64,000 bases of DNA, taken from the NCBI GenBank assembly GCA_963780855.1, contig CAWADF010000008.1:164189-228188 (forward strand), in the 5' to 3' direction. Positions 15,436-60,963 of the stretch are shown piece by piece (the first letter of the stretch is position 1; every line of letters starts with the position of its first letter). Under the pieces are notes generated by a model that ran no database searches, was not told where the DNA came from, and saw only the letters and a program-made list of their open reading frames with translations. A program made the position numbers and the translations under genes. The stretch is from an uncultured Acidobacteriota bacterium (GTDB taxonomy: Bacteria > Acidobacteriota > Vicinamibacteria > Vicinamibacterales > SCN-69-37).

Positions 15436-15473
15436 TCGCCCATGCTATCATTTATTAGTTGGAGTTCAAAATA

Positions 15474-19889: not shown

Positions 19890-19908
19890 CGCGGGCGCTC
19901 GGAGGCGC

Positions 19909-38810: not shown

Positions 38811-38825
38811 TGGAACGGGAATTGC
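38811..38825 (+). promoter_or_regulatory. Sigma-54-type -24/-12 motif TGGAAC-N5-TTGC immediately upstream of the RND operon
   Basis: tggaacgggaattgc at 38811-38825 has GG and GC in the canonical spacing of TGGCAC-N5-TTGC, with one mismatch in the -24 box. Caveat: the GC is only 14 nt from ATG 38840. The predicted transcript would be nearly leaderless and would exclude the AGGAAGG just before the ATG. Confidence 0.35.
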
Positions 38826-38839
38826 CCTAGGAAGGCGCC

Positions 38840-47353: not shown

Positions 47354-47395
47354 CTCGTCCTCTTGAGTTGACCTGGGGAACCGGGCGAAACACCC

Positions 47396-47620: not shown

Positions 47621-48364
47621 TCAGCCGCGCGTGCGGCGAAGGCCCCTGGCGAGAACGAGCAGGCCGGATCCCATCAGGACCATGGTGGTCGGCTCGGGCA
47701 CCGCGGCGACGCCCGGCGTGACGACCTCCAACTGATTCGTATTGCCGCCGGCCGTGCCGACCGGCTCGCCCGCCAGCGGCATCGACAGGCCGGCGAACGA
47801 CAGGAACAGGCTCTGGTCGTCTCCGCCCAGCGAGTTCGGGTTGACGCCAAATGCGGCCGCGAGCACCGGGTTGAACGTGCCCGGCGCGAGCGTGCCCGTG
47901 AGGCTGCCCGTGCACTGCGCGGGCGTCGTGACGCAGTCGTCGTCGAACTGCAGGATGACGTTGGCCGTCGGATCGAACGAGCCGCTGAAGAGGACGGTGT
48001 TGTCCGGCAGCGAGAGCGAAGCGATGCCGCCGGTCACCGTGACGGATCCGCCGCCGTTGTAGGCGAAGTCGTTGGCTGTGGTCGCGAGCACCGGCCCGAG
48101 GAACGTCCCGGTCGTCAGGTTCAGGCAGCCGAACGTTCCCGCGGTACCGCACGTGCCCGTGACATTGAAGCCAAACAGCGGGACGTCGTGCGCGACCGCA
48201 TCGACGACGCCGTTGTTCAGCGACACCGTCGTGCCGATGGAGAACGAGCCGTCGGGATGAAGGCTGCTGTTGTCGAACGTGATGGTGTCCGCGGTGGCGG
48301 CCGTAACGCCGATCGTGAGCCCGAGGCCCACTGCCAGAGGTATGCGTATCAACGAGCGCATCAT
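47621..48364 (-). CDS. PEP-CTERM sorting-signal protein (secreted, exosortase substrate type)
   Basis: Track ORF 47621..48364(-), 247 aa. Signal is MMRSLIRIPLAVGLGLTIGVTAATA. The body is Gly/Thr/Asn-rich. The C-terminus VPEPTTMVLMGSGLLVLARGLRRTRG shows PEP motif + TM + basic tail. RBS is GAAGGAG. Confidence 0.9.
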   Translation of the reverse strand: MMRSLIRIPLAVGLGLTIGVTAATADTITFDNSSLHPDGSFSIGTTVSLNNGVVDAVAHDVPLFGFNVTGTCGTAGTFGCLNLTTGTFLGPVLATTANDFAYNGGGSVTVTGGIASLSLPDNTVLFSGSFDPTANVILQFDDDCVTTPAQCTGSLTGTLAPGTFNPVLAAAFGVNPNSLGGDDQSLFLSFAGLSMPLAGEPVGTAGGNTNQLEVVTPGVAAVPEPTTMVLMGSGLLVLARGLRRTRG

Positions 48365-48426: not shown

Positions 48427-48442
48427 TTGCAATGGACTTGCC
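48427..48442 (-). promoter_or_regulatory. Sigma-54 promoter (-24 TGGCAA / -12 TTGCA) of the PEP-CTERM gene
   Basis: The minus strand reads TGGCAAGTCCATTGCA. GG and GC are in the exact spacing of consensus TGGCAC-N5-TTGCW. The GC lies 64 nt upstream of ATG 48364, leaving a ~52-nt leader that contains the RBS. Confidence 0.75.
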
Positions 48443-48624
48443 ACCATGCGTGGAGTCGATCGACCTCAAGATCGTCGGGCGCGTCGTCTCGGTGTGATCG
48501 CGTCCTGCAAAGATTGAGCAGCCGGACGCCGTGAATGTGCGCTCCGCGTCGCTCGGCCCAAGGGCGGACGCGCACGGATGGCGCCGACGTGTCCGCACTA
48601 GGTCGTACGAGCGAGCGCCTGTGG

Positions 48625-48986: not shown

Positions 48987-49526
48987 ATGTCGTCAACGTC
49001 AGCGCCGCCGGCGTGGGCCGTGGGCGCGTGCGCCGGCCTTCACGCGGCAGGCAGTCGTCATGTCGTCTACGTCCCGGACAACCCGTTGTCGCACGTGCTG
49101 CGCGTGCTTGGCGAACGCTACGCGGACGTGCAGACGACGATCGCCACGCGTGAGGAAGAGGCGTTCGGCATCGCGGCGGGGTTGTACCTGGGCGGTCAGC
49201 TGCCGACCGTCATGTTGCAGTCGAGCGGTCTCGGCAACTCGCTTAACGCGCTGACGTCGCTCCTCGTGCCCTACCAGATCCCGGCGCTGATCCTGGTCTC
49301 GATGCGCGGTGACGCGGGTGAGTGGAACTCGGCCCAAGTGCCCATGGGACGTGCGGTGGCGGCGATCTGCGAGGCGATCGGCGTGCCGGCGACAACCGTG
49401 ACGTCGGCGGAGGACACTGCCGAGACCGTCGCTCTCGTCGGCAGGACCGCGCGCATGACGCGGCTGCCCGGTGTGTGTCTGCTGCCCCGGCGAGTCACCG
49501 TGCCATCACCCAGGATGGCGTCGTGA
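48987..49526 (+). CDS. ThDP-dependent decarboxylase, alpha subunit (sulfopyruvate/phosphonopyruvate decarboxylase ComD-like, pyrimidine-binding half)
   Basis: In-frame ATG 48987 within track ORF 48867..49526(+), giving MSSTSAPPAWAVGACAGLHAAGSRHVVYVPDNPLSHVL..ATREEEAFGIAAGLYLGGQLPTVMLQSSGLGNSLNALTSLLVPYQIPALILVSMRG. At 179 aa it matches the size of split ComD subunits. Confidence 0.7.
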   Translation: MSSTSAPPAWAVGACAGLHAAGSRHVVYVPDNPLSHVLRVLGERYADVQTTIATREEEAFGIAAGLYLGGQLPTVMLQSSGLGNSLNALTSLLVPYQIPALILVSMRGDAGEWNSAQVPMGRAVAAICEAIGVPATTVTSAEDTAETVALVGRTARMTRLPGVCLLPRRVTVPSPRMAS

Positions 49527-50110
49527 CCCGGCTCGAGGCCACGCGTCATCTCGCACCGCTGCTCGGCAAGGCGGCGGTCGTCGCGAGTCTGGGCCATCCA
49601 GCCTACGACCTTTTTGCGACCGGCGACCGCGACACGTATTTCTACACGTGGGGCAGCATGGGGCTCGCGTCTTCGATTGGGCTCGGCCTCGCGATGGCGG
49701 AGCCCGAGCGGCGCGTGGTCGTCCTCGACGGCGACGGGTCGCTGCTGATGAATCTCGGGTCGCTCGCGACGATTGGTTGGGTTCGGCCGAAGAATCTCGT
49801 CGTCATCGTCTGGGACAACGGCGCGTACGGCACGACCGGCGGTCAGGACACGGCCACGGCGCACGGCGCGGACCTCGAAGCCGCGGCTCGCGCGCTGGGC
49901 ATTTCGGCGGCGACAACGGTGAAGACGCCGAAAGAGCTGGAGCACGCGATGACCCGCGCCGGTGTGGATGCGGGCCCGTGGGTGATCGTCGCGAAGGTCG
50001 AGGAATCGGCGCCGACGATGAAGCCGCCGCAGGATTGCGTGTTGATCAAGCAGCGATTCATGGCGGCGCTTGGCGTGCCGGAGGACGGGACTCGCGGGGG
50101 CAAGGCGTGA
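49523..50110 (+). CDS. ThDP-dependent decarboxylase, beta subunit (ComE-like, diphosphate-binding half)
   Basis: GTG 49523 overlaps the alpha-subunit stop (GTGA), in frame with track ORF 49322..50110(+). The ThDP motif is GSMGLASSIGLGLAMAEPERRVVVLDGDGSLLMNLGSLATIG...VIVWDNGAYGTTGGQ (GDG-X24-27-N). Length is 195 aa. Confidence 0.7.
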   Translation: MTRLEATRHLAPLLGKAAVVASLGHPAYDLFATGDRDTYFYTWGSMGLASSIGLGLAMAEPERRVVVLDGDGSLLMNLGSLATIGWVRPKNLVVIVWDNGAYGTTGGQDTATAHGADLEAAARALGISAATTVKTPKELEHAMTRAGVDAGPWVIVAKVEESAPTMKPPQDCVLIKQRFMAALGVPEDGTRGGKA

Positions 50111-51468
50111 GCGACGGATCGGCGCTGGCCCAGCTGGCGCGGTTCGTCGCGTCGTCCGCGCCGCCACCGGACGCGCGCACGCGCGCCGCCGCCGCGGTGC
50201 TCGACACGATCGGCGTCACGCTCGCCGGGACGATCGAGCCCGCGGCATCGATCGTCCGCACCCAGCTCGCTCCTCCCGGCGATCACGCCTGCGTCGTCTG
50301 GGGCGCCATGCGTCGTTCGACGCCCGGCGACGCGGCCCTGGCGAATGGCACGGCCGCGCACGCGCTCGACTACGACGACATGTGCTTCGTGTCGCTCGCG
50401 CATCCGAGCGCCCCGCTCGTGCCCGCGGTCGTGGCGGCCGCCGAAGTGGCTGCGGCGTCGGGTCGCGCCGCCCTCGAGGCGTACGTCGTCGGGTTCGAGG
50501 TGGAAGCCCGTCTCGGGCGCGTGATGAACCCGCGTCACTACCAGCGCGGCTGGCACTGCACGTCCACGCTGGGAACCATTGGCGCCGCGGCGGCGGCAAG
50601 CCGGCTGCTGGCCCTGGACGTCGGGGCGACCGCGCACGCGCTTGCCATCGCGGCGTCGGAAGCGTCGGGATTGAAAGAGAACTTCGGATCGATGGTCAAG
50701 CCGCTGCACGCGGGTCTGGCCGCCCGAAACGGCGTGCTCGCCGCGCTGCTCGCCCGCGCCGGCATGACCGCTTCCGCCCGGGCCATCGACGGTCCGCAGG
50801 GTCTGCTCGCCGCGATGGACAGCGCGGGTGCCGATCTCGCGCACGAGACGGCCGATCTCGGCAGGCGCTGGGAGATGCTCGACACCGGGATCACGGTGAA
50901 GTTGTATCCGTCGTGCGCCGGCACGCACCCGACGCTCGATGCCCTGCTCGATCTGAAATCACGCGATCGGTTTGCCGAGGAGGACGTCGATCGCGTCGAG
51001 GTCGACGTGGATCCGGTCGTGCCCACCATCTTGATTTACGACCGGCCGACGAACGCCCTCGAGGCCAAGTTCAGCCTGCCGTTCTGTGCGGCGGCCGCGG
51101 TCGTGTTCGGCGCCGTGGGCATCGACACCTTCGACGAGGAGCGAATCGCCGACGCGCGCGTCGCGTCCTTGATGCCAAGAGTGACCATGCGCGTGGATCC
51201 GACGGTCGGTCAGAACGCGCCGGCGCTGACGGAGGCGCGCGTGCGGGTGTTCCTGCGCGACGGTCGCGTGCTCGCGCAGCAGGCCCACGGCGCTCGTGGC
51301 TACCCGGCGCGGCCCGCCAGCGACGCGGAGCTCGACGCGAAATTCATGGCGTGCGCCACGCGCGCCCTGGCCACGGCGAGGGCCGCCGAGGTCCTCGCGA
51401 TCGTCCGCAGCGTGGACACCTTGACGGACGTCCGGGCGCTGACCGCGCGATTGAGCGCGATCGGCTGA
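50107..51468 (+). CDS. MmgE/PrpD-family protein (2-methylcitrate dehydratase superfamily)
   Basis: GTG 50107 overlaps the beta-subunit stop (GTGA), in frame with track ORF 49471..51468(+). Blocks are ..AAVLDTIGVTLAG.., ..ANGTAAHALDYDD.., ..GWHCTSTLGTIGAAAAASRLL.., ..GSMVKPLHAGLAARNGVLAALLA.. and ..VKLYPSCAGTHPTLDA.. Length is 453 aa. Confidence 0.85.
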   Translation: MSDGSALAQLARFVASSAPPPDARTRAAAAVLDTIGVTLAGTIEPAASIVRTQLAPPGDHACVVWGAMRRSTPGDAALANGTAAHALDYDDMCFVSLAHPSAPLVPAVVAAAEVAAASGRAALEAYVVGFEVEARLGRVMNPRHYQRGWHCTSTLGTIGAAAAASRLLALDVGATAHALAIAASEASGLKENFGSMVKPLHAGLAARNGVLAALLARAGMTASARAIDGPQGLLAAMDSAGADLAHETADLGRRWEMLDTGITVKLYPSCAGTHPTLDALLDLKSRDRFAEEDVDRVEVDVDPVVPTILIYDRPTNALEAKFSLPFCAAAAVVFGAVGIDTFDEERIADARVASLMPRVTMRVDPTVGQNAPALTEARVRVFLRDGRVLAQQAHGARGYPARPASDAELDAKFMACATRALATARAAEVLAIVRSVDTLTDVRALTARLSAIG

Positions 51469-51499
51469 GTGTCGCGTCGGGTCGGGTCTCGATTCGGTC

Positions 51500-52000
51500 T
51501 CAGGTCTTCGGCGACCGCCGCGCGTCCGCCGGGACGTGCCCGCGCTTCCAGATCAGGAACGTTCGACGGAATTCGATCACGACGTCGCCGTGCTGGTTGA
51601 GCCCGGTCGTCTTGACACTGACGATGCCTTGCGCCGGCCGGGACTTCGACTCCCGCGTCTCGAGGACCTCGCTCTTCGCGTAGATCGTGTCGCCCTCGAA
51701 GACCGGATGGGGCAGCGTGATGTCGGTCCAGCCAAGGTTGGCCACGCCGTTCACCGTGAGATCGATCACCGACTGTCCGGTGACGAGCGCCAGCGTGAAG
51801 CACGAGTTGACGAGCGGGCGCTTGAATTCGGTGTGGCTCGCGTATTCCGCGTCGAAGTGGATCGGATTGGTGTTCATCGTCAGGCAGGTGAACCAGATGT
51901 TGTCGGCCTGCGTGATCGTGCGTCCGAGCGGGTGCTCGTAGACGTCGCCCACCGCGAAGTCTTCGAAGACGCGCCCGGTCCAGCCAGGTTTGACGGCCAT
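51500..52000 (-). CDS. MaoC-family enoyl-CoA hydratase/dehydratase (hot-dog fold; itaconyl-/mesaconyl-CoA hydratase-like)
   Basis: Track ORF 51500..52000(-), 166 aa, giving ..GRTITQADNIWFTCLTMNTNPIHFDAEYA..LVNSCFTLALVTGQSV.. The start overlaps the CoA-transferase stop by 1 nt (TGATG). Confidence 0.8.
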   Translation of the reverse strand: MAVKPGWTGRVFEDFAVGDVYEHPLGRTITQADNIWFTCLTMNTNPIHFDAEYASHTEFKRPLVNSCFTLALVTGQSVIDLTVNGVANLGWTDITLPHPVFEGDTIYAKSEVLETRESKSRPAQGIVSVKTTGLNQHGDVVIEFRRTFLIWKRGHVPADARRSPKT

Positions 52001-53178
52001 CAGATCGTCCCCTCCGCGCGCCAGGCCGAGATGGCCTCCGCGTCAAAGCCGAGTTCGCCAAGGATCGCGTCGGTGTGCGCTCCAAGCGCGGGCACGGCGT
52101 CAAGTCGCGGCTCGACGTCGTCGATCTGGACCGGCGGCACCAGCGTCCGGATGCGGCCCGCGGGCGAGTCGATCTCGCGCCAGCGGCGCCGCGCCGTGAG
52201 CTGCGGGTGAGCGATGAACGCCGGCATCGTCTTCATCCGCGCATACGCGATCTGCGCGGTTTCGAGGCGCGCGACGAGCTCGCGTGTCGTCAGCGTGCCG
52301 ACGACGGCGGCGATCGCCTCGTCAAGTGCGGCGCGATTTGTCACGCGCAGCGAGTTGGTCGCGAAACGGGCGTCAGCAGCGACCTCGGCGTGGCGGAGCA
52401 CGTCGGTGCAGAGACGCACCCACTCACGGGCGTTCTGCACGGCCACGAAGACCGTGTCGCCTTCGCTCGTCGTGACCGGGCCGTACGGCGCGATCGACGC
52501 GTGGTTGAGGCCGCTGCGGCTCGGCGCGCGCCCGCCGTACGCCGTATACGCGGCAGGCGCGCCCATCCACTCGGCGAGGGCGTCGAAGAGCGACACGTCC
52601 ACCGTCGCCCCGCGACCGGAGGAGGCGCGGGAATAGAGCGCGGTGAGGACGCCTGAAAACGCGTACATCCCCGCCGAGATATCGGCGACCGAGATGCCGA
52701 CCTTTGCCGGCGCGTCGCTCGTGCCCGTGAGCGACAGCAGCCCGACCTCGCTCTGCACGAGCAGATCGTACGCCTTGCGATCGGCGTACGGGCCGGACGA
52801 GCCGTAGCCCGAGACCGAACAGACAATGAGCGCGGGGTAGCGGGCGCGAAGATCCCCGGGCGCGGTGCCGAGCCGATCGGCCGCCCCGGGCGCGACATTC
52901 TGCACGAAGACGTCCGCCCGCGCGAGCAGTCGATCGAGCACCGCGGCGGCGCCGGGCTTCTTGAGATCGAGCGTCAGTGATTCCTTCGACCGGTTGAGCC
53001 AGACGAAGTAGCTCGACAGGCCGTTGACCGTCGCGTCGTAGCTTCGCGCGAAGTCGCCGGTGCCGGGACGCTCGATCTTGATGACGCGCGCGCCCAGGTC
53101 CGCGAGCTGCCGGGTCGCGAACGGCGCCGCGACCGCCTGCTCGACCGCGACGACGGTGACGCCCTCGAGCGGCCTCAT
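52000..53178 (-). CDS. Family III CoA-transferase (CaiB/BaiF family)
   Basis: Track ORF 52000..53178(-), 392 aa, giving MRPLEGVTVVAVEQAVAAPFATRQLADLGARVIKIERPGTGDFAR..YFVWLNRSKESLTLDLK..ADVFVQNVAPGAADRLG.. Confidence 0.9.
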   Translation of the reverse strand: MRPLEGVTVVAVEQAVAAPFATRQLADLGARVIKIERPGTGDFARSYDATVNGLSSYFVWLNRSKESLTLDLKKPGAAAVLDRLLARADVFVQNVAPGAADRLGTAPGDLRARYPALIVCSVSGYGSSGPYADRKAYDLLVQSEVGLLSLTGTSDAPAKVGISVADISAGMYAFSGVLTALYSRASSGRGATVDVSLFDALAEWMGAPAAYTAYGGRAPSRSGLNHASIAPYGPVTTSEGDTVFVAVQNAREWVRLCTDVLRHAEVAADARFATNSLRVTNRAALDEAIAAVVGTLTTRELVARLETAQIAYARMKTMPAFIAHPQLTARRRWREIDSPAGRIRTLVPPVQIDDVEPRLDAVPALGAHTDAILGELGFDAEAISAWRAEGTI

Positions 53179-53238
53179 GCGCCGGAGCTCCCGGTGACGC
53201 CGGCCCCACCCTGAGATCGGACGCCGACCGGTTGGTCG

Positions 53239-54417
53239 TCAGTACGATCGCGGCAGGCCAAGAACGTGTTCGCCCACATAGGCCAGAATCAGGTTCGTCG
53301 AAATCGGCGCCACCTGGTACAGTTTCGTCTCCCTGAACTTCCGCTCGATGTCGTAGTCCTCCGCAAAGCCGAAGCCGCCATACGTCTGGACCGCGACGTT
53401 GGCCGCTTCCCACGACGCGTCCGCGGCGAGCAGCTTCGCCATGTTGGCCTCCGCCCCGCAGGGCTGGCCTCGGTCGAACAGGGTCGCAGCCTTGATGCGC
53501 ATCAGGTCCGCCGACTCGATGTTCACGTGCGCCCGTGCGATGGGAAACTGCACGCCCTGGTTCTGGCCGATCGGCCGGCCGAAGACGACGCGATCGTTCG
53601 CGTACTTCGTCGCACGCTCGATGAACCAGCGACCGTCGCCGATGCACTCCGCCGCAATCAGGATGCGCTCGGCGTTCAGCCCGTCGAGCAGGTACCGGAA
53701 CCCCTTGCCCTCTTCGCCCACGAGCGCCGACGCCGGCACTTCGAGATCGTCGAAGAACAGCTCCGTCGTCGCGTGATTCATCATCGTCCGGATGGGCCGG
53801 ATCGTCAGCCCGTGGCCGACGGCGGCGCGAAGATCCACGAGAAAGATTGAGAGGCCGTCGCCGCGTTTCTTGACCTGATCGATCGGCGTCGTCCGCGCGA
53901 CGAGCAGCAGCAGGTCCGAGTGTTCGGCGCGCGAGATCCAGACCTTCTGGCCGCGGACGACGTAGGTGTCGCCCTTGCGGACGGCCATCGTCTTGAGCTG
54001 CGTGGTGTCCGACCCCGTCGTCGGCTCGCTGACGCCGAACGCCTGCAGGCGCAGCGCGCCGCTCGCGATCTTTGGCAGGTACTCGCGCTTCTGCGCGTCG
54101 GAGCCGTGCCGGAGCAGCGTGCCCATCGTGTACATCTGCGCGTGGCACGCGCCGGCGTTCGCGCCGCTGCGGTTGATCTCCTCGAGGATGACCGCGGCCT
54201 CCGTGACGCCGAGCCCCGAGCCTCCGAACTCCTCGGGGATCAGCGCCGCAAGATAGCCGGCGTCGGTCAGCGCCTTGACGAACGCCTCAGGATAGGCGCG
54301 CCTGGCGTCCAGTTCCCGCCAGTACGCATCGGGGAACGAGCGGCAGAGATCGCGAACGGCCGAACGCAGCTCCTGATGGGCGTCGTCGTCGGGTGTCGAG
54401 GACACGCCGGGAATCAT
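53239..54417 (-). CDS. Acyl-CoA dehydrogenase
   Basis: Track ORF 53239..54417(-), 392 aa. Blocks are ..LQAFGVSEPTTGSDTTQLKTMAV.., ..KVWISRAEHSD.., ..GRPIGQNQGVQFPIARA.. and ..QTYGGFGFAEDYDIERKFRETKLYQVAPISTN.. Confidence 0.9.
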   Translation of the reverse strand: MIPGVSSTPDDDAHQELRSAVRDLCRSFPDAYWRELDARRAYPEAFVKALTDAGYLAALIPEEFGGSGLGVTEAAVILEEINRSGANAGACHAQMYTMGTLLRHGSDAQKREYLPKIASGALRLQAFGVSEPTTGSDTTQLKTMAVRKGDTYVVRGQKVWISRAEHSDLLLLVARTTPIDQVKKRGDGLSIFLVDLRAAVGHGLTIRPIRTMMNHATTELFFDDLEVPASALVGEEGKGFRYLLDGLNAERILIAAECIGDGRWFIERATKYANDRVVFGRPIGQNQGVQFPIARAHVNIESADLMRIKAATLFDRGQPCGAEANMAKLLAADASWEAANVAVQTYGGFGFAEDYDIERKFRETKLYQVAPISTNLILAYVGEHVLGLPRSY

Positions 54418-54509
54418 ATCGCGCGCATGTCGAGCCGATGACCCGTCGGTCGGCCAATCATGACGACCCCCTAAGTCGAAAGCTGCGTGGCCTGCGAGCT
54501 CGATCCGGT

Positions 54510-56126
54510 GTGGAGTACCATGGCCGCCTTGTGGGTGGCCTGGCGGATCAGCTGATCGGTCGGCTGCGCGGGGTCGGCACGCGCGCGCTGTTCGGCGTGC
54601 CCGGTGGCGGCGGCAATCTGCGCCTGATCGAGGCGGCCGGCCGGGCCGGGCTGCCGTTCGTGCTGACCGCGACGGAAACGGCCGGCGCCATCGCCGCCAT
54701 CGCGCAGTCCGAGGTGACTGGCAGCCCCGGCGCGTGCCTGACGACGCTCGGTCCAGGCGCGGCGTCGGTGGTGAACGGCGTCGCGTGCGCGTTTCTCGAG
54801 CGCGCGCCGATCTTCGTGTTCACCGACACGTACGCATCTGCGGACGCCGGCACGTTCGAGCACCAGGCCATCTCGCACACGGCGCTCTTTCAGCGCGTGA
54901 CGTCGCGGTCGCTGAGCCTGGCGCCCGATCACGCGTTCGCGTCGATCGACCAGGCGTTCACGGCCATGGCGACGCCGCCGCCCGGGCCCGTGCATTTCGA
55001 CTGTCCGGCCGACTTCGAATCCGGCGCCAGACCGAAGGCCTGGCTCGTCGGCCGATCGCATGGACCGGACGCCGAGGCGCCGGACCTCGTGCGGCTGGAG
55101 CGCCTGCTGGAGCGATCGGCCAAGCCACTCGTGATCGTCGGGCTGGCCGCGCGACGTCCGGAGGACGCCGCCGCGATTCGACAGCTTTGTGAGCGGCACG
55201 ACCTGCCCGCGATGGTCACGTACAAGGCGAAGGGCGTCGTCCCCGACAGCCACCGGTGCTTTGCCGGGATCTTCACCAACGGAGCGATCGAGCGCGAGAT
55301 CATCGACGAGAGCGATCTGCTGATCGGCATCGGCCTGGATCCCGTCGAGCTGCTGCCGCGGCCCTGGACGGTCGCGCCCGCCATCGTCGGCATCGCCGCC
55401 TGGGCGATGTCCACCGAGCACGTGCCGTTCAGCGTCCAGTGGGTGAGCGAGATTCCCGCCGCGCTCGGCCGGCTCGACGGCTGGCTTGGCCCCTCCGGCT
55501 GGGATCTGTCGGAGGTCGCGCATACCGTGCGCGAGCAGCGTCGGCGGATCGACATCGCGGCGCCCGGCCTCACGCCCCAGCGCGTCGTCGACGTCGCGGC
55601 CGAGGCGCTGGCGGCGACGAGTCGCGTCACCATCGACGCGGGCGCGCACATGTTTCCGGCCACGATGGGGTGGCCGGCGGCCGCGCCCAACGATCTGCTG
55701 ATCTCGAACGGGCTCTCGACGATGGGCTTCGCGCTGCCGGCGGCGATCGGCGCGGCCCTCGTCGATCGCGAGCGACCGGTGGTCGCGCTGACGGGCGACG
55801 GCGGTCTGCTGATGTGCGCGGGCGAGCTGCTGACGGCGGCCCGCGAGCAGCTGCGTGTGATCGTGGTCGTCTTCAACGACGCGGCGCTGAGCCTGATCGA
55901 GATCAAGCAGCAGGCGCGCAAGCTGCCGCCGGCCGGCGTCGCGCTGGGCGCGGTCCGGTGGGCCGCGCTTGCGGAGAGTCTGGGCGTCGCCGGATTCGAG
56001 GCGTCGACCGCCGACGAGCTGAGCGGCGCGATCGAGCGCGCATCAGCCTGCAACGGGCCGGCACTCATCGACGTCAAGGTCGATCGATCCACCTATGGCA
56101 ATGTGCTCGAGATCATTCGCGGGTAG
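54510..56126 (+). CDS. ThDP-dependent enzyme of the acetolactate synthase / glyoxylate carboligase / sulfoacetaldehyde acetyltransferase superfamily; start uncertain
   Basis: Track ORF 54393..56126(+). Candidate starts are ATG 54438, GTG 54510 and GTG 54531. The N-terminal domain is ..LADQLIGRLRGVGTRALFGVPGGGGNL..ETAGAIAAIAQSEVTGSPGACLTTLGPGAASVVNGVACA.. The C-terminal ThDP motif is LTGDGGLLMCAGELLTAAREQLRVIVVVFNDAALSLI. Confidence 0.75.
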   Translation: MEYHGRLVGGLADQLIGRLRGVGTRALFGVPGGGGNLRLIEAAGRAGLPFVLTATETAGAIAAIAQSEVTGSPGACLTTLGPGAASVVNGVACAFLERAPIFVFTDTYASADAGTFEHQAISHTALFQRVTSRSLSLAPDHAFASIDQAFTAMATPPPGPVHFDCPADFESGARPKAWLVGRSHGPDAEAPDLVRLERLLERSAKPLVIVGLAARRPEDAAAIRQLCERHDLPAMVTYKAKGVVPDSHRCFAGIFTNGAIEREIIDESDLLIGIGLDPVELLPRPWTVAPAIVGIAAWAMSTEHVPFSVQWVSEIPAALGRLDGWLGPSGWDLSEVAHTVREQRRRIDIAAPGLTPQRVVDVAAEALAATSRVTIDAGAHMFPATMGWPAAAPNDLLISNGLSTMGFALPAAIGAALVDRERPVVALTGDGGLLMCAGELLTAAREQLRVIVVVFNDAALSLIEIKQQARKLPPAGVALGAVRWAALAESLGVAGFEASTADELSGAIERASACNGPALIDVKVDRSTYGNVLEIIRG

Positions 56127-56129
56127 ACC

Positions 56130-57572
56130 ATGACCGAACACCTCATCATCAACGGTTCGCGCGTGCCGGCGTCCGACGCCGGCACGTTCGACGTCTTCGA
56201 CCCCTCGTCCGGCGACGTGCTCGCGACCGTGTCGAAGGCGACCGCGACGGACGTCGATCGCGCGGTCCAGGCCGCGCAGGCGGCATTCGACGGCAAGGCC
56301 TGGGGCGGCATCGCGCCGGCCGAGCGCGGGCGCATCATGCAGCGCATCGCGCAGGCGCTTCGGGATCGCGCCGAGGAGCTGGCCACGCTCGAGAGCCGGG
56401 ACAACGGCAAGCCGCTGCGGCAGGCGCGCACCGACGTCCAGGTGGCGGCGCGGTACTTCGAGTTCTTTGCGGGCGTCGCCGACAAGATCATGGGGAACAC
56501 CATCCCCCTCGGCCCGGGATTTCTCGACTACACGATTCGCGAGCCCATCGGGGTGTCCGCGCAAATCGTGCCCTGGAACTATCCGATCCAGATCGGCGCG
56601 CGCGGCGCGGCGCCGGCGCTGGCGGCCGGGTGCACCGTGGTGCTCAAGCCGTCGAGCGAGGCGCCGATGACGGCGCTGCGGCTCGGGGAAATCGCGCTCG
56701 CGTGCGGCTTGCCGCCGGGAGTGCTGAACGTCGTGCCGGGCACGGGATCGGAAGCGGGCGTCGCGCTGGCGAGTCATCACGACGTCAACCAGTTGACGTT
56801 CACCGGGTCGGTGGCCGTCGGCGTGCAAGTGGCGACGATGGCCGCCCAGAACGTCGTGCCGGTCGTCATGGAGCTGGGGGGCAAGTCGCCGAACATTGTC
56901 TTTGCGGACGCGGATCTCGATCTCGCCGTGCAAGGCGTCGCCACCGCGATCTTCCAGAACGCCGGCCAGACGTGCTCCGCGGGATCGCGCCTCCTGGTCG
57001 AGCGATCCGCGCACGGCGCGCTCGTCGATCGACTGGCCACCCGCGCGAAATCGATGCGCGTCGGGCCGGGCGTCAGCGACCCGGACATGGGGCCGATCAT
57101 CTCGAAGCGACAGCTCGAGACGATCGAACGCTACGTGCAGGAGGGCGCGGCCGAGGGCGCACACGTCGCCGCCGGCGGCGCGAGGCCGTCGGATCCCGCG
57201 CTGGCGCGCGGCTTCTACTTCCAGCCGACGCTGCTCGACGCGGTGTCGCCGGACATGCGCGTCGCGCGCGAGGAGATCTTCGGACCCGTGCTCGCCATCA
57301 TCGACTTCGACGACCTGGACGAGGCGGCGGCGCTGGCCAACCGCAGCGACTACGGGCTGGTCGCGGGCATCTGGACGCGCGACATCAACAAGGCGATGAC
57401 GCTGGCGGCGCGAATCAAGTCGGGGCAGGTGTACATCAACACGTACGGCGCGGGCGGCGGCGTGGAGCTGCCGTTCGGCGGGTACAAGAAGAGCGGATAC
57501 GGGCGGGAGAAGGGCCTCGAGTCGCTGGCCAGTTACACGCAGGTGAAGAATGTCTGCGTGAAGTACGCGTGA
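56130..57572 (+). CDS. NAD(P)-dependent aldehyde dehydrogenase
   Basis: Track ORF 56130..57572(+), 480 aa. Blocks are ..VPWNYPIQIG.., ..VMELGGKSPNIVFADADLD.. and ..GQTCSAGSRLLV.. (catalytic Cys and Glu boxes). It starts 3 nt after the preceding stop. Confidence 0.9.
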   Translation: MTEHLIINGSRVPASDAGTFDVFDPSSGDVLATVSKATATDVDRAVQAAQAAFDGKAWGGIAPAERGRIMQRIAQALRDRAEELATLESRDNGKPLRQARTDVQVAARYFEFFAGVADKIMGNTIPLGPGFLDYTIREPIGVSAQIVPWNYPIQIGARGAAPALAAGCTVVLKPSSEAPMTALRLGEIALACGLPPGVLNVVPGTGSEAGVALASHHDVNQLTFTGSVAVGVQVATMAAQNVVPVVMELGGKSPNIVFADADLDLAVQGVATAIFQNAGQTCSAGSRLLVERSAHGALVDRLATRAKSMRVGPGVSDPDMGPIISKRQLETIERYVQEGAAEGAHVAAGGARPSDPALARGFYFQPTLLDAVSPDMRVAREEIFGPVLAIIDFDDLDEAAALANRSDYGLVAGIWTRDINKAMTLAARIKSGQVYINTYGAGGGVELPFGGYKKSGYGREKGLESLASYTQVKNVCVKYA

Positions 57573-57626
57573 TCGCGCCGGCTGCCCATCTGACGCCCGC
57601 GCCGGTCGCTCGCGAAGGAGCCGCAC

Positions 57627-58520
57627 ATGACCATTGGATTCATCGGACTCGGCAACATGGGACGGCCCATGGCGTCGAATCTCGTGCGGAAGGGCTTTCA
57701 CCTGCGCGTGCACGATGTCGATCGCGATCGCGTCAGGGCGCTCGAGGCGCTCGGCGCGCAGGCGGCGGCGGACGCGCGCGGCGTGGCAGGGGCCTGCGAC
57801 GTCGTCTTCACCATGTTGCCCGATTCGGCGAGCGTGCTCGAAGTCATCGGCGGGCGGGGCGGCCTGATCGAGCACGGCCGCGCCGGACAGACGATTGTCG
57901 ACATGAGCACGATCGATCCGATCATCACCGATCGATTGGCCGCAGAGTCGGCAGCGTCGGGCATGGCGTTCGCCGACGCGCCAGTCGGACGACTCGCGAG
58001 CCACGCCGAGCGGGGCGAGTCGCTCTTCATGGTCGGCGCCGCCCCGGACGTCTTCGAACGCATCAAGCCCATGCTCGACGCCATGGGCACGACGATTCAT
58101 CACTGCGGCGCGGTCGGCACCGGGATGCGGACCAAGCTGGTCAACAACTACCTGGCGATCATCTCGTGCGCGTTCAACGCGGAGGCGGTGGCGCTGTCGC
58201 AGCGGTTCGGGCTGGCGCTCGAGAAGACGCTCGACGTGGTGCACGGCACGACCGCGACGAACGGACAGCTCAAGATCGCCTGGCCGTCCAAGGTCCTCCA
58301 GGGCGACGTCGCGCCTGGCTTCACGATCGACCTGGCACACAAGGATCTGACGCTCATCGTCGATGCCGCCAACGCCGTGAAGGTGCCGGTGCCGATTGCG
58401 GCGGCGGCACGGGAGTCGTACAGCGCGGCGCGCAGCCGCGGGCGGGGCGGCCAGGATTTCTCGGCGATGGCCGATGCACTCTGCGATGACGCCGGCATCA
58501 CGCGGCCGAGGCTAAAGTAG
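57627..58520 (+). CDS. Beta-hydroxyacid dehydrogenase (3-hydroxyisobutyrate / tartronate-semialdehyde / sulfolactaldehyde reductase family)
   Basis: Track ORF 57627..58520(+), 297 aa. The Rossmann start is MTIGFIGLGNMGRPMASNL. Further blocks are ..VDMSTIDP.. and ..GTGMRTKLVNNYL.. Confidence 0.85.
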   Translation: MTIGFIGLGNMGRPMASNLVRKGFHLRVHDVDRDRVRALEALGAQAAADARGVAGACDVVFTMLPDSASVLEVIGGRGGLIEHGRAGQTIVDMSTIDPIITDRLAAESAASGMAFADAPVGRLASHAERGESLFMVGAAPDVFERIKPMLDAMGTTIHHCGAVGTGMRTKLVNNYLAIISCAFNAEAVALSQRFGLALEKTLDVVHGTTATNGQLKIAWPSKVLQGDVAPGFTIDLAHKDLTLIVDAANAVKVPVPIAAAARESYSAARSRGRGGQDFSAMADALCDDAGITRPRLK

Positions 58521-58526
58521 AAGATC

Positions 58527-59963
58527 ATGAGCACCACCTATCCGAATCTGATCGATGGCCGGCGCGTCGAGTCGCGCGACCGCCAGTCGGACATCAACCC
58601 GTCGAACACCGCCGACATCGTCGGCGAATTCTCGCGCGCGACGACGACGGAACTGCACGAGGCGATTGCCGCGGCGCGCCAGGCGTTCGGGACGTGGTCC
58701 CGATCGACGCCGCAGCAACGGTTCGACGTGCTGGACAAGGCCGGCACCGAGATCCTCGCGCGCAAGGACGAGCTCGGCCGGCTGCTCGCGCGCGAGCAGG
58801 GCAAGCCGCTCGCCGACGGCGTCGGCGAAGCCGCGCGCGCCGGCATGATTTTCAAGTTCTTCGCCGGCGAGGCGGTGCGTCTGGCTGGCGAGCGGCTGGA
58901 TTCGACGCGGCCGGGCATCGACGTCGAGGTGACGCGCGAGCCGCTCGGCGTCGTCGCCGCGATCACGCCGTGGAACTTCCCGCTGGCGATTCCCGCGTGG
59001 AAGATCGCGCCGGCGATCGCGTTCGGAAACGCCGTCGTCTTCAAGCCCGCCGAGCTCGTGCCGGCGTCGCCCTGGGCGATAGCGGAGATCGTTCAGCGTG
59101 CGGGGCTGCCGCCGGGCGTGCTCAACCTCGTCATGGGGCCGGGATCGAAACTCGGGCCGGCCCTGGCGTCGTCGCCCGAGGTGGACGCCGTCAGTTTCAC
59201 GGGCTCGCAGGACGTCGGGCCGTCGGTGGCAGCGGCTGCGGTGGCGGCCGGATCGCGCGTCCAACTCGAGATGGGCGGGAAGAATCCGCTGATCGTGCTC
59301 GACGACGCCGATCTGCCGACCGCCGTGTCGATTGCCATCAACGGCGCGTACTTCCAGGCGGGGCAGCGCTGCACGGCGTCGAGCCGGCTGATCGTGACCG
59401 AGGGGATTCACGATCGCTTCGTCGCGGCGATGATCGACCGTATGAAGGCGCTGGTGATCGACGACGCGTTGAAGGCGGGCGTCGAGATCGGGCCGGTCGT
59501 GGACGGACGGCAGTTGGAGAAGGACCTCGAGTACGTGGCGATCGGCCAGCGCGAGGGCGCGCGGCTCGTGCAGGGCGGGGAGCGATTGAAGCGTCAGACC
59601 GACGGGTTCTACATGGCGCCCGCGCTCTTCACGGAGACGACGGGGCAGATGCGCATCAACCGCGAGGAGGTCTTCGGGCCGGTCGCGGCCGTCATTCGCG
59701 TGAAGGACTATGAGGAGGCGTTGGCGGTGGCCAACGAGACGCCGTTCGGGCTGTCGGCGGGCATCGTGACGACCTCGCTGAAGCACGCGCGGCATTTCAA
59801 ACGCAACTCGACGAGCGGGTTGGTGATGGTGAACCTGCCGACGGCCGGGCTCGACTACCACGTGCCGTTTGGCGGGCGAAAGAAATCGAGCTACGGCCCG
59901 CGCGAGCAAGGCACGTACGCGAAAGACTTCTACACGGTGGTGAAGACGGCGTACACGGGGTAG
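58527..59963 (+). CDS. Aldehyde dehydrogenase (2,5-dioxovalerate / alpha-ketoglutarate-semialdehyde dehydrogenase-like by C-terminal motif)
   Basis: Track ORF 58527..59963(+), 478 aa. Blocks are ..ITPWNFPLAIPAWK.., ..LEMGGKNPLIVLDDADL.., ..GQRCTASSRLIV.. and ..VNLPTAGLDYHVPFGGRKKSSYGPREQG.. The last base of stop TAG is the first base of the large inverted repeat. Confidence 0.85.
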   Translation: MSTTYPNLIDGRRVESRDRQSDINPSNTADIVGEFSRATTTELHEAIAAARQAFGTWSRSTPQQRFDVLDKAGTEILARKDELGRLLAREQGKPLADGVGEAARAGMIFKFFAGEAVRLAGERLDSTRPGIDVEVTREPLGVVAAITPWNFPLAIPAWKIAPAIAFGNAVVFKPAELVPASPWAIAEIVQRAGLPPGVLNLVMGPGSKLGPALASSPEVDAVSFTGSQDVGPSVAAAAVAAGSRVQLEMGGKNPLIVLDDADLPTAVSIAINGAYFQAGQRCTASSRLIVTEGIHDRFVAAMIDRMKALVIDDALKAGVEIGPVVDGRQLEKDLEYVAIGQREGARLVQGGERLKRQTDGFYMAPALFTETTGQMRINREEVFGPVAAVIRVKDYEEALAVANETPFGLSAGIVTTSLKHARHFKRNSTSGLVMVNLPTAGLDYHVPFGGRKKSSYGPREQGTYAKDFYTVVKTAYTG

Positions 59964-60072
59964 GGACGGGGCTTTTTTCCACAGATTTGGCCGTTGCAGG
60001 GACGGAGGTCGGCCGCTACGGGTCCGACCCCCGTCCCTTTTTGGCCAAATCTGTGGAAAAAAGCCCCGTCCC
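59963..60072. repeat. 110-bp nested inverted repeat: perfect 30-bp outer arms enclosing a 15-bp inner hairpin
   Basis: The outer left arm gggacggggcttttttccacagatttggcc (59963-59992) is the exact reverse complement of ggccaaatctgtggaaaaaagccccgtccc (60043-60072). The inner stem agggacggaggtcgg (59998-60012) pairs with ccgacccccgtccct (60024-60038), 14/15 paired, with an 11-nt loop. I saw only one copy in this window. Confidence 0.9.
59998..60042 (+). terminator. Rho-independent terminator for the + strand ALS-like/ALDH operon (inner hairpin + T5)
   Basis: A 15-bp GC-rich stem with an 11-nt loop is followed directly by ttttt (60038-60042). It lies 35 nt after stop 59963. Confidence 0.7.
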
Positions 60073-60963
60073 CACCACCCGACGCGCACGCGCGATCACC
60101 GGGGCGTCGACCATGCGGTCGTCGAGGCGGTAGGCGCCCTCGCCGCGCGCGCGGGCGGCGGCGTCGGCGTCGAGCAGACGACGCGCCGCCGCGATTTCTT
60201 CCGCAGACGGCGTGAACACCTCGTTGATCACGGCCACCTGATCCGGGTGAATCGCCATCTTGCCGCGGAAGCCCAGCGATCGTGCACGCACCGCGTCCTC
60301 GCGCAGCCGATCCGCCGACGTCAGATCCACGAACACGGCGTCGATCGGATCAGCGCCGATCGTCGCGGCCGCTAGCACGACCTGGGACCGCGCCAGCTGA
60401 ATCTCGTTACCTCCAAGCGTGCGCGGGATCCCGAGCTCGGCGGTGAGATCCTCCGCGCCGAAGAAGATCGCCGGGATTCGAGCGTTGGCCGACACGATCG
60501 CGGCGGCGCCAAGAATCCCGCGCGCCGTCTCGAGCAGCGGGATCACGGCCCGCGCCGGCGCGACAGCGGCCACCCGATCGACATCGCGGGCCGACTCCGC
60601 CTTCGGCAGCACGACGCCATCGACGCGCGCGGCGACGCCCGCCAGCCACGTCAGATCATCGTCGATCCACGGCGACGCGGCGCCGTTGACGCGAACCAGC
60701 CGCGCCGGGGCCGCGGCGCCCGCCGCACCCTGGCCGAGAAAGTCGCCGACGAGCCGCCGCGCTTCGTCCTTGCGCGTCGCGTCGACAGCGTCCTCGAGAT
60801 CGAGCACCACGGCGTCCGCGCCGGCAGCCATGGCCTTGGCGAAACGGTCAGCTCGAGTCCCGGGCACGAAGAGCACGGAGCGCAGGAGCGACGCCACGCC
60901 GCCATTGTCATCGATCCACGGCACCGCCAGACAGCAATCGCTGGCGCCGGCCGCAGCCGGCAT
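60016..60963 (-). CDS. HpcH/HpaI aldolase - citrate lyase beta (CitE)-like acyl-CoA lyase (citramalyl-/malyl-/beta-methylmalyl-CoA lyase type)
   Basis: Track ORF 60016..60963(-). The start is ambiguous (ATG 60963, GTG 60924 or GTG 60897, the last giving VASLLRSVLFVPGTRADRF). Blocks are ..LRSVLFVPGTRADRFAKAMAAGADAVVLDLEDAV.., ..VVLPKAES.., ..IFFGAEDLTAELG.. and ..GFRGKMAIHPDQV.. The stop codon 60016-60018 sits in the loop of the inner hairpin. The last 19 codons lie in the right half of the inverted repeat. Confidence 0.85.
   Translation of the reverse strand: MPAAAGASDCCLAVPWIDDNGGVASLLRSVLFVPGTRADRFAKAMAAGADAVVLDLEDAVDATRKDEARRLVGDFLGQGAAGAAAPARLVRVNGAASPWIDDDLTWLAGVAARVDGVVLPKAESARDVDRVAAVAPARAVIPLLETARGILGAAAIVSANARIPAIFFGAEDLTAELGIPRTLGGNEIQLARSQVVLAAATIGADPIDAVFVDLTSADRLREDAVRARSLGFRGKMAIHPDQVAVINEVFTPSAEEIAAARRLLDADAAARARGEGAYRLDDRMVDAPVIARARRVVGTGLFSTDLAKKGRGSDP

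Follow-up and report, generated by a model that had tools for sequence, protein, structure and literature searches.

The closest described systems are gene clusters of Pseudomonas (PA0878-PA0883) and Cupriavidus necator (E6A55_22580-22600) that encode Ich, Mcd, Msi, Ict, and Ccl (PMC12290011, PMC9875883). In these clusters the acyl-CoA dehydrogenase (ACAD) acts as an (RS)-methylsuccinyl-C4-CoA dehydrogenase (Mcd) and the PrpD-family member as an (S)-(R)-methylsuccinate isomerase (Msi), which together with Ict, Ich, and Ccl yield acetyl-CoA and pyruvate (Gonner et al. 2025, PMC12290011; de Witt et al. 2023, PMC9875883). A published survey, in which ThDP or ALDH genes go unmentioned, placed 96% of Msi genes in Pseudomonadota and only two in Acidobacteriota, and the authors of the 2023 to 2025 cluster work called the environmental origin of methylsuccinate unclear. 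Here we analyze an eleven-gene block at positions 48987-60963 of a 64-kb stretch of DNA from an uncultured Acidobacteriota bacterium (contig CAWADF010000008.1, positions 164,189 to 228,188; this full stretch is referred to as the window). The block holds the same five enzyme families as the Pseudomonas/Cupriavidus cluster, but its core genes are spread over three units, its host belongs to the Acidobacteriota, and it adds a ComDE-like decarboxylase, an acetolactate synthase (ALS)-like thiamine diphosphate (ThDP) enzyme, two aldehyde dehydrogenases (ALDHs), and a YihU-like dehydrogenase. We read the block, with a probability of about one half, as an extended catabolic locus for branched C5-dicarboxylates of the methylsuccinate/itaconate type, fed by a branch that leads from a 2-oxo-diacid via a semialdehyde to the diacid. 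The block joins a CoA core of known kind to a ThDP/ALDH extension that is conserved but unexplained, and it further has a divergent epimerase and additions specific to its lineage.

The eleven genes form four abutting units on alternating strands. The first (48987-51468, plus strand) encodes a ComD-like, a ComE-like, and a PrpD-family protein, with 4-bp overlaps (GTGA) at both the ComD/ComE and the ComE/PrpD junction. The second (51500-54417, minus strand) encodes a MaoC hydratase, a CoA-transferase, and the ACAD, the former two genes overlapping by 1 bp, while the third (54438-59963, plus strand) comprises the ALS-like ThDP enzyme, ALDH1, a beta-hydroxyacid dehydrogenase, and ALDH2, separated by gaps of 3, 54, and 6 bp. 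The fourth (60016-60897, minus strand) consists of a CitE gene. Families were assigned with Pfam and NCBIfam, and solved relatives were taken from PDB matches. Pfam agreed with the family that the earlier note had named for each of the eleven genes, and its picture of eleven genes in four abutting units is likewise borne out by the coordinates and by the third-position G+C content of the called frames (0.79 to 0.92; window G+C, 66 to 72%; genome G+C, 69%). The absence of a transporter or regulator inside the block holds for the window as well; relatives do have an SDF symporter or MFS, GntR, and LysR genes within the cluster.

Judged by its sequences, the core of the block is a branched C5-dicarboxylate CoA module of known kind, given the identity of the ACAD to PA0879, the likeness of the hydratase to mesaconyl-CoA hydratases, and the match of the lyase to RipC_Ccl. 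The ACAD (53239..54417, minus strand; Pfam Acyl-CoA_dh_N/M/1) is a probable orthologue of Mcd (PA0879), with approximately 64% identity over 357 in-frame residues. The Msi and Mcd references were synthetic gene sequences from a published supplement PDF with dropped letters, on which gapped tblastn was misleading, so that all identities to them derive from ungapped colinear pieces only and are approximate. Measured against the same damaged reference, the ACADs of Ralstonia, Variovorax, Deinococcus, and the Solibacteraceae locus L069 (L numbers designate the individual loci compared) reach 71 to 74%. By comparison, the best solved generic ACAD gave about 218 bits (about 35% identity), and 6es9, the C1-ester Mcd of the ethylmalonyl-CoA pathway, gave 162 bits. 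Because the window ACAD thus resembles the C4-ester rather than the C1-ester Mcd, acetyl-CoA and pyruvate would be the expected products. The published Mcd enzymes have a low catalytic efficiency on methylsuccinyl-CoA (kcat/KM, 1 to 4 per s per mM), and the best substrate of this ACAD family may for that reason still have to be found.

The ACAD gene is adjoined by that for an Ict-like family III CoA-transferase (52000..53178, minus strand; Pfam CoA_transf_3, 360 bits), which has no NCBIfam equivalog and is 47 to 56% identical to the CoA-transferases next to Mcd and Msi in proteobacterial clusters. The short MaoC (R)-hydratase (51500..52000, minus strand; Pfam MC_hydratase and MaoC) is itaconyl/mesaconyl-CoA hydratase-like; it scores 212 with NCBIfam RipB_Ich (cutoff, 340), and among solved proteins it is closest to beta-methylmalyl-CoA dehydratase/mesaconyl-CoA hydratases (121 and 106 bits). 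Its conservation in syntenic loci is 73 to 91%, and the Deinococcus copy shares 66% identity with it. The Ccl-like CitE/HpcH beta-hydroxyacyl-CoA lyase (60016..60897, minus strand; Pfam HpcH_HpaI) finds its best NCBIfam match in RipC_Ccl (188 versus a cutoff of 375) and its solved relatives in the Deinococcus radiodurans CitE (180 bits), an "acyl-CoA lyase beta chain" (140 bits), and RipC (136 bits). For this gene the GTG start at 60897 is more likely than the ATG at 60963, since the 22 additional residues are unmatched in homologues. The likeness of the hydratase, CoA-transferase, lyase, ACAD, and PrpD set to the Pseudomonas itaconate locus, which was pointed out before, is therefore upheld by the ACAD identity and the mesaconyl-CoA hydratase-like MaoC protein.

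The earlier note had placed the other six genes outside that pathway, and here the comparison with other phyla led to a different result. When the window ACAD was used in tblastn searches of annotated plasmids and chromids, copies with 67 to 74% identity were found, the neighborhoods of which were then read. A seven-gene subset (ComD, ComE, ALDH, ACAD, CoA-transferase, hydratase, and CitE lyase) recurs outside the Acidobacteriota. It is a single operon in Bosea (ComD-ComE-ALDH-ACAD-CoA-transferase-hydratase-lyase) and in Deinococcus sp. QL22 (PrpD-ComD-ComE-PxpA-ACAD-CoA-transferase-lyase-MaoC-ALDH). In Ralstonia solanacearum, LysR and ComD-ComE-ALDH are followed by CoA-transferase-lyase and then by hydratase-ACAD, whereas Variovorax paradoxus has hydratase-ACAD-CoA-transferase-PrpD, ETF, lyase, and ALDH-ComD-ComE, and Sphingobium an alpha-hydroxy-acid oxidase, ComD-ComE-ALDH, and hydratase-CoA-transferase-ACAD. 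In Mesorhizobium (PrpD-lyase-hydratase-CoA-transferase-oxidoreductase-ACAD) and Sinorhizobium (lyase-hydratase-CoA-transferase-oxidoreductase-ACAD, the stretch read being without PrpD), the CoA genes are divergent from LysR and ComD-ComE-ALDH. Identities of the window proteins to these loci by tblastn are 67 to 74% for the ACAD, 47 to 56% for the CoA-transferase, 36 to 44% for CitE, 41 to 46% for ComE, 35 to 46% for ComD, and 41 to 44% for ALDH1, and the ALDHs adjoining ComDE in Proteobacteria and Deinococcus are closer to ALDH1 than to ALDH2. A 549-residue ThDP protein encoded nearby in Bosea is only 22% identical to the window ALS-like enzyme and is not its orthologue. Overall, the set recurs in at least four phyla (Acidobacteriota, Gemmatimonadota, Deinococcota, and Alpha- and Betaproteobacteria), and these repeated neighborhoods assign ComD, ComE, and one ALDH to the CoA module. 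ComD, ComE, and ALDH1 accompany the CoA genes in all of these groups, and the ALS-like ThDP enzyme travels with the set throughout the Acidobacteriota and Gemmatimonadota.

The proteobacterial ComD-ComE-ALDH genes form a separate LysR-controlled operon located beside genes for a PLP-dependent aminotransferase, an alpha-hydroxy-acid oxidase, and FAD oxidoreductases; nearby, there are also genes for PxpA-like lactam hydrolase subunits and for amino-acid or dicarboxylate transporters. The PxpA-like genes (LamB/YcsF, 5-oxoprolinase subunit A) were seen in Deinococcus (L086, 8204-8992), Sinorhizobium (L094, 14568-15329), and Mesorhizobium (L090, 17986 onward), where they are accompanied by SDR and FAD-dependent oxidoreductase genes, and their recurrence hints at a lactam or amino-acid precursor. 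Some public labels in these loci are misleading. The ComE-like beta subunits of Ralstonia (L085, 1432-2028), Variovorax (L088, 19470-20075), and Sphingobium (L092, 8929-9519) are annotated as "aldehyde dehydrogenase," and a gene beside the ACAD gene in Ralstonia (L085, 8114-8962) and Sphingobium (L092, 11407-12195) that is labeled "acyl-CoA dehydrogenase" probably encodes a two-domain MaoC hydratase, considering its length and position.

Conservation closer to home was assessed by searching homologues of the central ThDP enzyme, 25 of which were aligned; the alignment served to retrieve 80 genome loci, each with flanks of 10 kb, on which all eleven window proteins were mapped by tblastn. Twenty-two loci had a ThDP enzyme at least 52% identical to that of the window together with full flanks, all of them from Acidobacteriota and mostly from Vicinamibacterales metagenome-assembled genomes. 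Among these 22, the ACAD and the MaoC hydratase were each found in 20, ALDH1 in 19, the CoA-transferase and ComD in 18 each, PrpD in 17, ComE in 16, the beta-hydroxyacid dehydrogenase in 15, and ALDH2 in 13. The ACAD is the most conserved protein of the block, with 84 to 92% identity across loci (L001-L062) in which the adjacent ThDP enzyme is only 52 to 76% identical. Vicinamibacterales-like Acidobacteriota have the gene order of the window, whereas in Terriglobia nine block genes are present in shuffled order. In a Gemmatimonadota metagenome-assembled genome (L043), a single operon headed by the gene for an SDF-type Na+:dicarboxylate symporter continues with ThDP, ACAD, CoA-transferase, MaoC, ALDH1, ComD, ComE, CitE, and PrpD. 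The Terriglobales loci L051 and L052 read ThDP-(ALDH)-ComD-ComE-ACAD-CoA-transferase-PrpD-(CitE)-ALDH, CitE being detected in L051 only, and the Bryobacteraceae locus L061 and the Solibacteraceae locus L069 read ThDP-PrpD-ACAD-CoA-transferase-MaoC and ThDP-PrpD-ACAD-CoA-transferase-CitE-MaoC, respectively. In L043, L051, L069, Deinococcus, and Bosea, the operon includes CitE. Loci of the Vicinamibacterales type alone have the beta-hydroxyacid dehydrogenase and ALDH2, neither of which occurs in distant loci, and alphaproteobacterial ThDP homologues (38 to 44% identical) lack the block context and have heterogeneous neighborhoods that are uninformative on function. Across 84 loci, no transporter, regulator, or sulfite exporter was found to accompany the block in general, only lineage-specific SDF, MFS, and GntR genes. 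The juxtaposition of the units cannot be due to chance, as it is kept in dozens of genomes and survives shuffling of the gene order, and the co-occurrence of the block genes that the earlier note had put forward for checking is found both in rearranged form and in single operons.

The PrpD-family protein (50107..51468, plus strand; Pfam MmgE_PrpD_N and MmgE_PrpD_C) has as its best solved relative the iminodisuccinate (IDS) epimerase (PDB 2hp0/2hp3; 231 bits, about 35% identity). All seven residues that are common to the IDS epimerase and Msi according to a published list (PMC12290011) are kept (H85, D88, H99, Y145, H150, K198, and K266), and with them the His/Tyr two-base set, in which Tyr145 is the second base. 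We therefore predict that the window protein is a two-base epimerase of a 2-substituted succinate. In contrast to the IDS epimerase, its context lacks a C-N lyase and its substrate is presumably a carbon-substituted succinate. A neighbor-joining tree resolved three clades of cluster-associated PrpD proteins: an Msi type (Variovorax, Mesorhizobium, L051, L052, and L057), a second type (Deinococcus, Terriglobia, and Bryobacteraceae), and the window type (Vicinamibacterales and Gemmatimonadota). Direct comparison of the Msi-type proteins with PaMsi and CnMsi gave approximate identities of 57 to 68% for Variovorax and 51 to 68% for L051, showing that true Msi orthologues sit in clusters that also contain ComDE.

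The ComD-like alpha subunit (48987..49526, plus strand; PYR domain, Pfam TPP_enzyme_N) and the ComE-like beta subunit (49523..50110, plus strand; PP domain with the GDG...N ThDP motif, Pfam TPP_enzyme_C) share the split alpha/beta layout and the ThDP motif of ComDE and phosphonopyruvate decarboxylases and have these as their nearest named models. However, the scores stay below the curated cutoffs (128.4 versus 147.95 for ComD with the sulfopyruvate decarboxylase alpha model; 171.6 versus 221.5 with ComE and 173 versus 240 with PRK06163 for ComE), a sulfonate or phosphonate context is missing, and the window protein falls in a subclade of its own. Among solved structures, ComE is closest to a putative phosphonopyruvate decarboxylase beta subunit (9iz3, 88 bits). 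The known substrates of the ComDE family are dianionic 3-substituted pyruvates. In syntenic acidobacterial loci the ComD copies are 65 to 85% identical, while the window ComE is roughly equidistant (38 to 46%) from true ComE, AepY, and the proteobacterial cluster copies. A neighbor-joining tree of ComE with 500 bootstraps and only two true ComE/AepY references recovered a clade A (proteobacterial, Deinococcus, and Terriglobales sequences; 80%) and a clade B (Vicinamibacterales and Gemmatimonadota, including the window; 72%). Clade B is accompanied by the window-type PrpD, and clade A by either of the other two PrpD types (Msi or second). Such covariation of decarboxylase and epimerase, while the ACAD stays constant, suggests that both enzymes see the variable part of the substrate.

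The ALS-like three-domain ThDP enzyme (54438..56126, plus strand; Pfam TPP_N/M/C) is a proposed second 2-oxoacid decarboxylase. Its NCBIfam scores are 286 of 509 required for PRK08322, 256 of 510 for AlsS (NF006378), 228 of 551 for TIGR02418, and 195 of 538 for IlvB (TIGR00118), and among solved relatives catabolic ALS (200 bits) precedes HACL/Oxc (about 100 to 115 bits; HACL, 115) and Gcl (77 bits). Neither Xsc nor Gcl models occur among the 25 best NCBIfam matches, all of at least 128 bits, and the PDB matches contain no Xsc entry. The enzyme is kept in clusters without ComDE (L002, L003, L061, and L069) and may therefore stand in for ComDE functionally. Its start is uncertain, lying at 54438 (public gene call P0001) or at a GTG at 54510 or 54531. 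The annotated starts of the divergent ACAD and ThDP genes (54417 and 54438) are 20 bp apart, and 8 to 10 bp apart in L001 and L003, so that either the promoters are embedded in the coding sequences of the adjacent genes or the true ThDP start is an internal one, at GTG 54510 or 54531. In Terriglobia and some Alphaproteobacteria (L046, 9342-9983; also L048, L054, L055, L058, L075, and L083), the gene immediately preceding the ThDP homologue belongs to the RraA-like (HMG/CHA aldolase) family, and on a Burkholderia cenocepacia plasmid (L093, 254-2269) three RraA-family genes and an aminotransferase gene precede ComD-ComE-ALDH.

ALDH1 (56130..57572, plus strand; Pfam Aldedh, 580 bits), the gene for which adjoins the ThDP gene, is 76 to 90% conserved and has no equivalog, its best NCBIfam match being BADH (522 versus 668). 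The beta-hydroxyacid dehydrogenase (57627..58520, plus strand; Pfam NAD_binding_2 and NAD_binding_11) is YihU-like and would interconvert a semialdehyde and a hydroxy acid; it scores 295.8 with the sulfolactaldehyde reductase (YihU) model (cutoff, 348), and its solved relatives are YihU (6sm7, 244 bits), 2-(hydroxymethyl)glutarate dehydrogenase (190 bits), and tartronate semialdehyde reductase (TSR; 163 bits). ALDH2 (58527..59963, plus strand; Pfam Aldedh) is a KGSADH-like semialdehyde dehydrogenase according to its match with 2,5-dioxovalerate dehydrogenase (501 versus 750). An arrangement reminiscent of the ThDP-ALDH1 gene pair exists in cyanobacteria, where a ThDP-dependent 2-oxoglutarate decarboxylase and a succinic semialdehyde dehydrogenase form a bypass. 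The decarboxylase of this bypass has been described (PMC10418658). In both cases an ALS-superfamily ThDP gene is paired with an ALDH gene and the proposed conversion runs from 2-oxo-diacid to semialdehyde to diacid, but no specific sequence relationship is shown, the window enzyme being nearest to catabolic ALS, and the pair in the window is tied to CoA-dependent diacid degradation, not to the TCA cycle.

How might these enzymes work together? In the core, the CoA-transferase would form the C4-CoA ester of a 2-substituted succinate, which the Mcd-like ACAD would oxidize to a mesaconyl-type enoyl-CoA; hydration by the MaoC protein would give a citramalyl-type 3-hydroxyacyl-CoA, and cleavage by the CitE lyase acetyl-CoA plus a 2-oxoacid, which would be pyruvate if the substituent is methyl. 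The PrpD-family protein would epimerize the free diacid at C2, such that both stereoisomers can enter. In the proposed extension, the ComDE-like enzyme, and probably the ALS-like enzyme as well, would turn dianionic 2-oxo-diacids, of the type of a substituted 2-oxoglutarate, into semialdehydes by decarboxylation, and ALDH1 would oxidize these to the diacid feeding the core, while in Vicinamibacterales the YihU-like dehydrogenase and ALDH2 might provide a second entry for omega-hydroxy acids via a like semialdehyde. We infer that the decarboxylases and ALDH1 act upstream of the CoA module because the separate proteobacterial ComD-ComE-ALDH operon lies beside genes that make 2-oxoacids, because pyruvate as the known product of the Mcd route needs no special disposal, and because two other block enzymes, the YihU-like and the KGSADH-like one, likewise have semialdehydes as substrates. 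Taken together, these points would make a substituted succinic semialdehyde the natural hub. More specifically, but only as a tentative suggestion that we would not rate as probable, the ComDE-like enzyme and ALDH (plus the ALS-like enzyme in Acidobacteriota) could constitute an undescribed non-oxidative entry from branched 2-oxoglutarates to methylsuccinate, itaconate, or citramalate for Ict, Mcd, Ich, and Ccl. Candidate inputs would be 4-methyl-, 4-methylene-, and 3-methyl-2-oxoglutarate, for example from plant 4-substituted glutamates or lactams, and semialdehydes that are racemic or of mixed stereochemistry would explain the constant presence of an epimerase in the set. In our literature searches we found no relevant paper connecting ComDE-like, ThDP, or ALDH genes with itaconate or methylsuccinate clusters, and nothing relevant on genes for bacterial catabolism of 4-substituted glutamates; the possibility of an undescribed route, listed last in the earlier note, was thus right as far as the extension is concerned.

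Several observations weigh against this reading. None of the eleven block proteins reaches an NCBIfam equivalog cutoff, so that each is a family member only and its specificity is not given by the models, and the 64% identity of the ACAD is an approximate figure obtained with an OCR-damaged PA0879 sequence. The hydratase is of the short RipB type and not of the two-domain Pseudomonas type. The PrpD protein is not an Msi orthologue but belongs to a separate clade (about 34% identity to Msi-type proteins), which means that its substrate may not be methylsuccinate. CitE was found within 10 kb in only 6 of the 22 close loci, and the window itself contains no aminotransferase or oxidase. With only two references, ComE clades A and B were not recovered as one group (9% bootstrap), and a single origin of the ComDE association can consequently not be claimed. 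If pyruvate is the product, the two ThDP enzymes have no obvious downstream job, yet an upstream role is not proven; the function of the ALS-like enzyme is the least certain part and forms the weakest link.

Alternatively, the extension might act downstream of the lyase. The substrate would then be a 2-substituted succinate with a non-methyl substituent (ethyl, hydroxymethyl, or benzyl, for instance), and the noncentral 2-oxoacid released by the lyase would be decarboxylated by the ComDE-like and/or the ALS-like enzyme and the resulting aldehyde oxidized by an ALDH. The presence of two decarboxylases and two ALDHs in one block would be accounted for, and the joint inheritance of the window PrpD and ComE, in clades distinct from the Msi-associated types, fits a changed substituent. 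Also, ComDE-family substrates have the form X-CH2-CO-COOH, which is what such a lyase would release. Larger substrates could moreover fit the Msi pocket (PMC12290011). Still, we find this arrangement doubtful, since true Msi/Mcd clusters with pyruvate as the product (Variovorax and L051) have ComDE and ALDH as well, and since the proteobacterial ComDE-ALDH operons adjoin genes for an aminotransferase and an oxidase, enzymes that would supply a 2-oxoacid without any contribution from the lyase. Glutarate, the CoA ester of which is an isomer of methylsuccinyl-CoA, might also be considered as the substrate. Here, 2-oxoadipate would be converted via glutarate semialdehyde to glutarate, glutaryl-CoA, and, without decarboxylation, glutaconyl-CoA, and hydration and CitE-type cleavage would yield acetyl-CoA and malonate semialdehyde, to be handled by the YihU-like enzyme and ALDH2. 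Succinate-glutarate CoA-transferase is indeed the best NCBIfam match of the CoA-transferase, SUGCT figures among the best solved relatives, and the second-best model for the ACAD is a non-decarboxylating glutaryl-CoA dehydrogenase. These model scores remain far below the cutoffs, however (236 versus 750 and 218 versus 470), the ACAD is much like characterized Mcd, the hydratase is mesaconyl-CoA hydratase-like, and glutarate is achiral and would have no use for an epimerase, whereas PrpD or Msi is conserved in the cluster, all of which makes a glutarate route improbable.

The two remaining metabolic schemes proposed in the earlier note fare worse. Salvage of glyoxylate, released together with propionyl-CoA, by the ALS-like enzyme acting as Gcl and the beta-hydroxyacid dehydrogenase acting as TSR would agree with the ALS/Gcl superfamily membership of the former and the 221-bit score of the latter with TIGR01505. 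Yet the ThDP enzyme matches Gcl far less well than ALS (77 versus 200 bits, PDB) and lacks Gcl models among its 25 best NCBIfam matches, the TSR score is below its cutoff (341) and is surpassed by that of YihU (296), no distant version of the cluster has the dehydrogenase, and the ACAD resembles the C4-ester Mcd, the route of which ends in pyruvate and acetyl-CoA, and not the C1-ester enzyme (6es9, 162 bits), so that we regard this scheme as highly improbable. Equally hard to defend, if not slightly harder, is a C3-sulfonate branch in which a sulfopyruvate decarboxylase would work alongside an Xsc-like enzyme and both a reductase and a dehydrogenase for sulfolactaldehyde. The ComDE models are the nearest ones for ComD and ComE, YihU is the nearest for the beta-hydroxyacid dehydrogenase (296 versus 348; 244 bits to 6sm7), and one locus, L053, has a weak TauE/SafE (TSUP) gene (13211-14176, minus strand; 50 bits) just after ThDP-ALDH, the sole such neighbor in 84 loci. 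All of these scores are nonetheless below curated cutoffs (128/148 and 172/222 for ComD and ComE), no match at the level of Xsc was obtained, and sulfite exporters or oxidases, Xsc, Pta, sulfolactate or DHPS dehydrogenases, and sulfonate transporters are not conserved in the 84 loci. A genuine ComDE locus, in Leisingera, looks different, with TRAP genes, an HpsN-like HisD, an SDR, an ADH, and an alpha-hydroxy-acid oxidase, and sulfonate metabolism would leave the linkage to ACAD, CoA-transferase, hydratase, and lyase across phyla without explanation. Finally, the alternating strands and the lack of a visible shared regulator in the window might indicate four unrelated operons that merely abut, but the units are co-localized in dozens of genomes, stay together upon rearrangement, and have merged into one operon each in L043, Deinococcus, and Bosea, and we give this view hardly any credence.

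Upstream of the block lie an HlyD-AcrB-TolC efflux operon of the RND type (38831-44693), a sigma-54 activator gene with three GAF domains (44711-47356, minus strand), and a gene for a secreted 247-residue PEP-CTERM protein (47621-48364, minus strand) with the C-terminal sorting signal VPEP...LARGLRRTRG; downstream are genes for an Fpg/Nei glycosylase and a CDF transporter. A scan for sigma-54 promoters revealed no element upstream of any of the four units, the two nearby matches being on the minus strand. A sigma-54-like -24/-12 element, TGGCAAGTCCATTGC (48429-48443, minus strand), is located 65 bp upstream of the start of the PEP-CTERM gene, and another, TGGAACGGGAATTGC (38811-38825, plus strand), lies directly before the efflux operon, which may thus be a member of the regulon of the neighboring activator. 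As no such element precedes the units and the minus-strand match precedes the PEP-CTERM gene, the triple-GAF activator probably serves its neighbors and is not the regulator of the block. Scans for sigma-70 promoters and terminators were uninformative in this GC-rich genome, and neither ETF nor a dicarboxylate transporter nor a dedicated regulator is encoded in the window. The remaining genes of the window are unrelated housekeeping genes. Among them, a fused trehalose-6-phosphate synthase/phosphatase gene (13192-15444, minus strand) is found near a GH15 trehalase-like gene (19807-21111, plus strand), and with two flanking Na+/H+ exchanger genes this looks like an osmoprotection neighborhood that has no relation to the block.

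In conclusion, soil Acidobacteriota and Gemmatimonadota commonly carry the CoA module, whereas the published model had placed the pathway almost wholly in Pseudomonadota. The linkage of the module to a ThDP decarboxylase and an ALDH suggests that a feeder (or disposal) branch awaits characterization and that the ComDE family includes a further, new specificity, and related gene sets are carried by culturable organisms, including Variovorax, Ralstonia, Bosea, Sinorhizobium, and Deinococcus. If the entry route from branched 2-oxoglutarates proves true, it would be the missing natural source of methylsuccinate and would add a new substrate class to the ComDE family.

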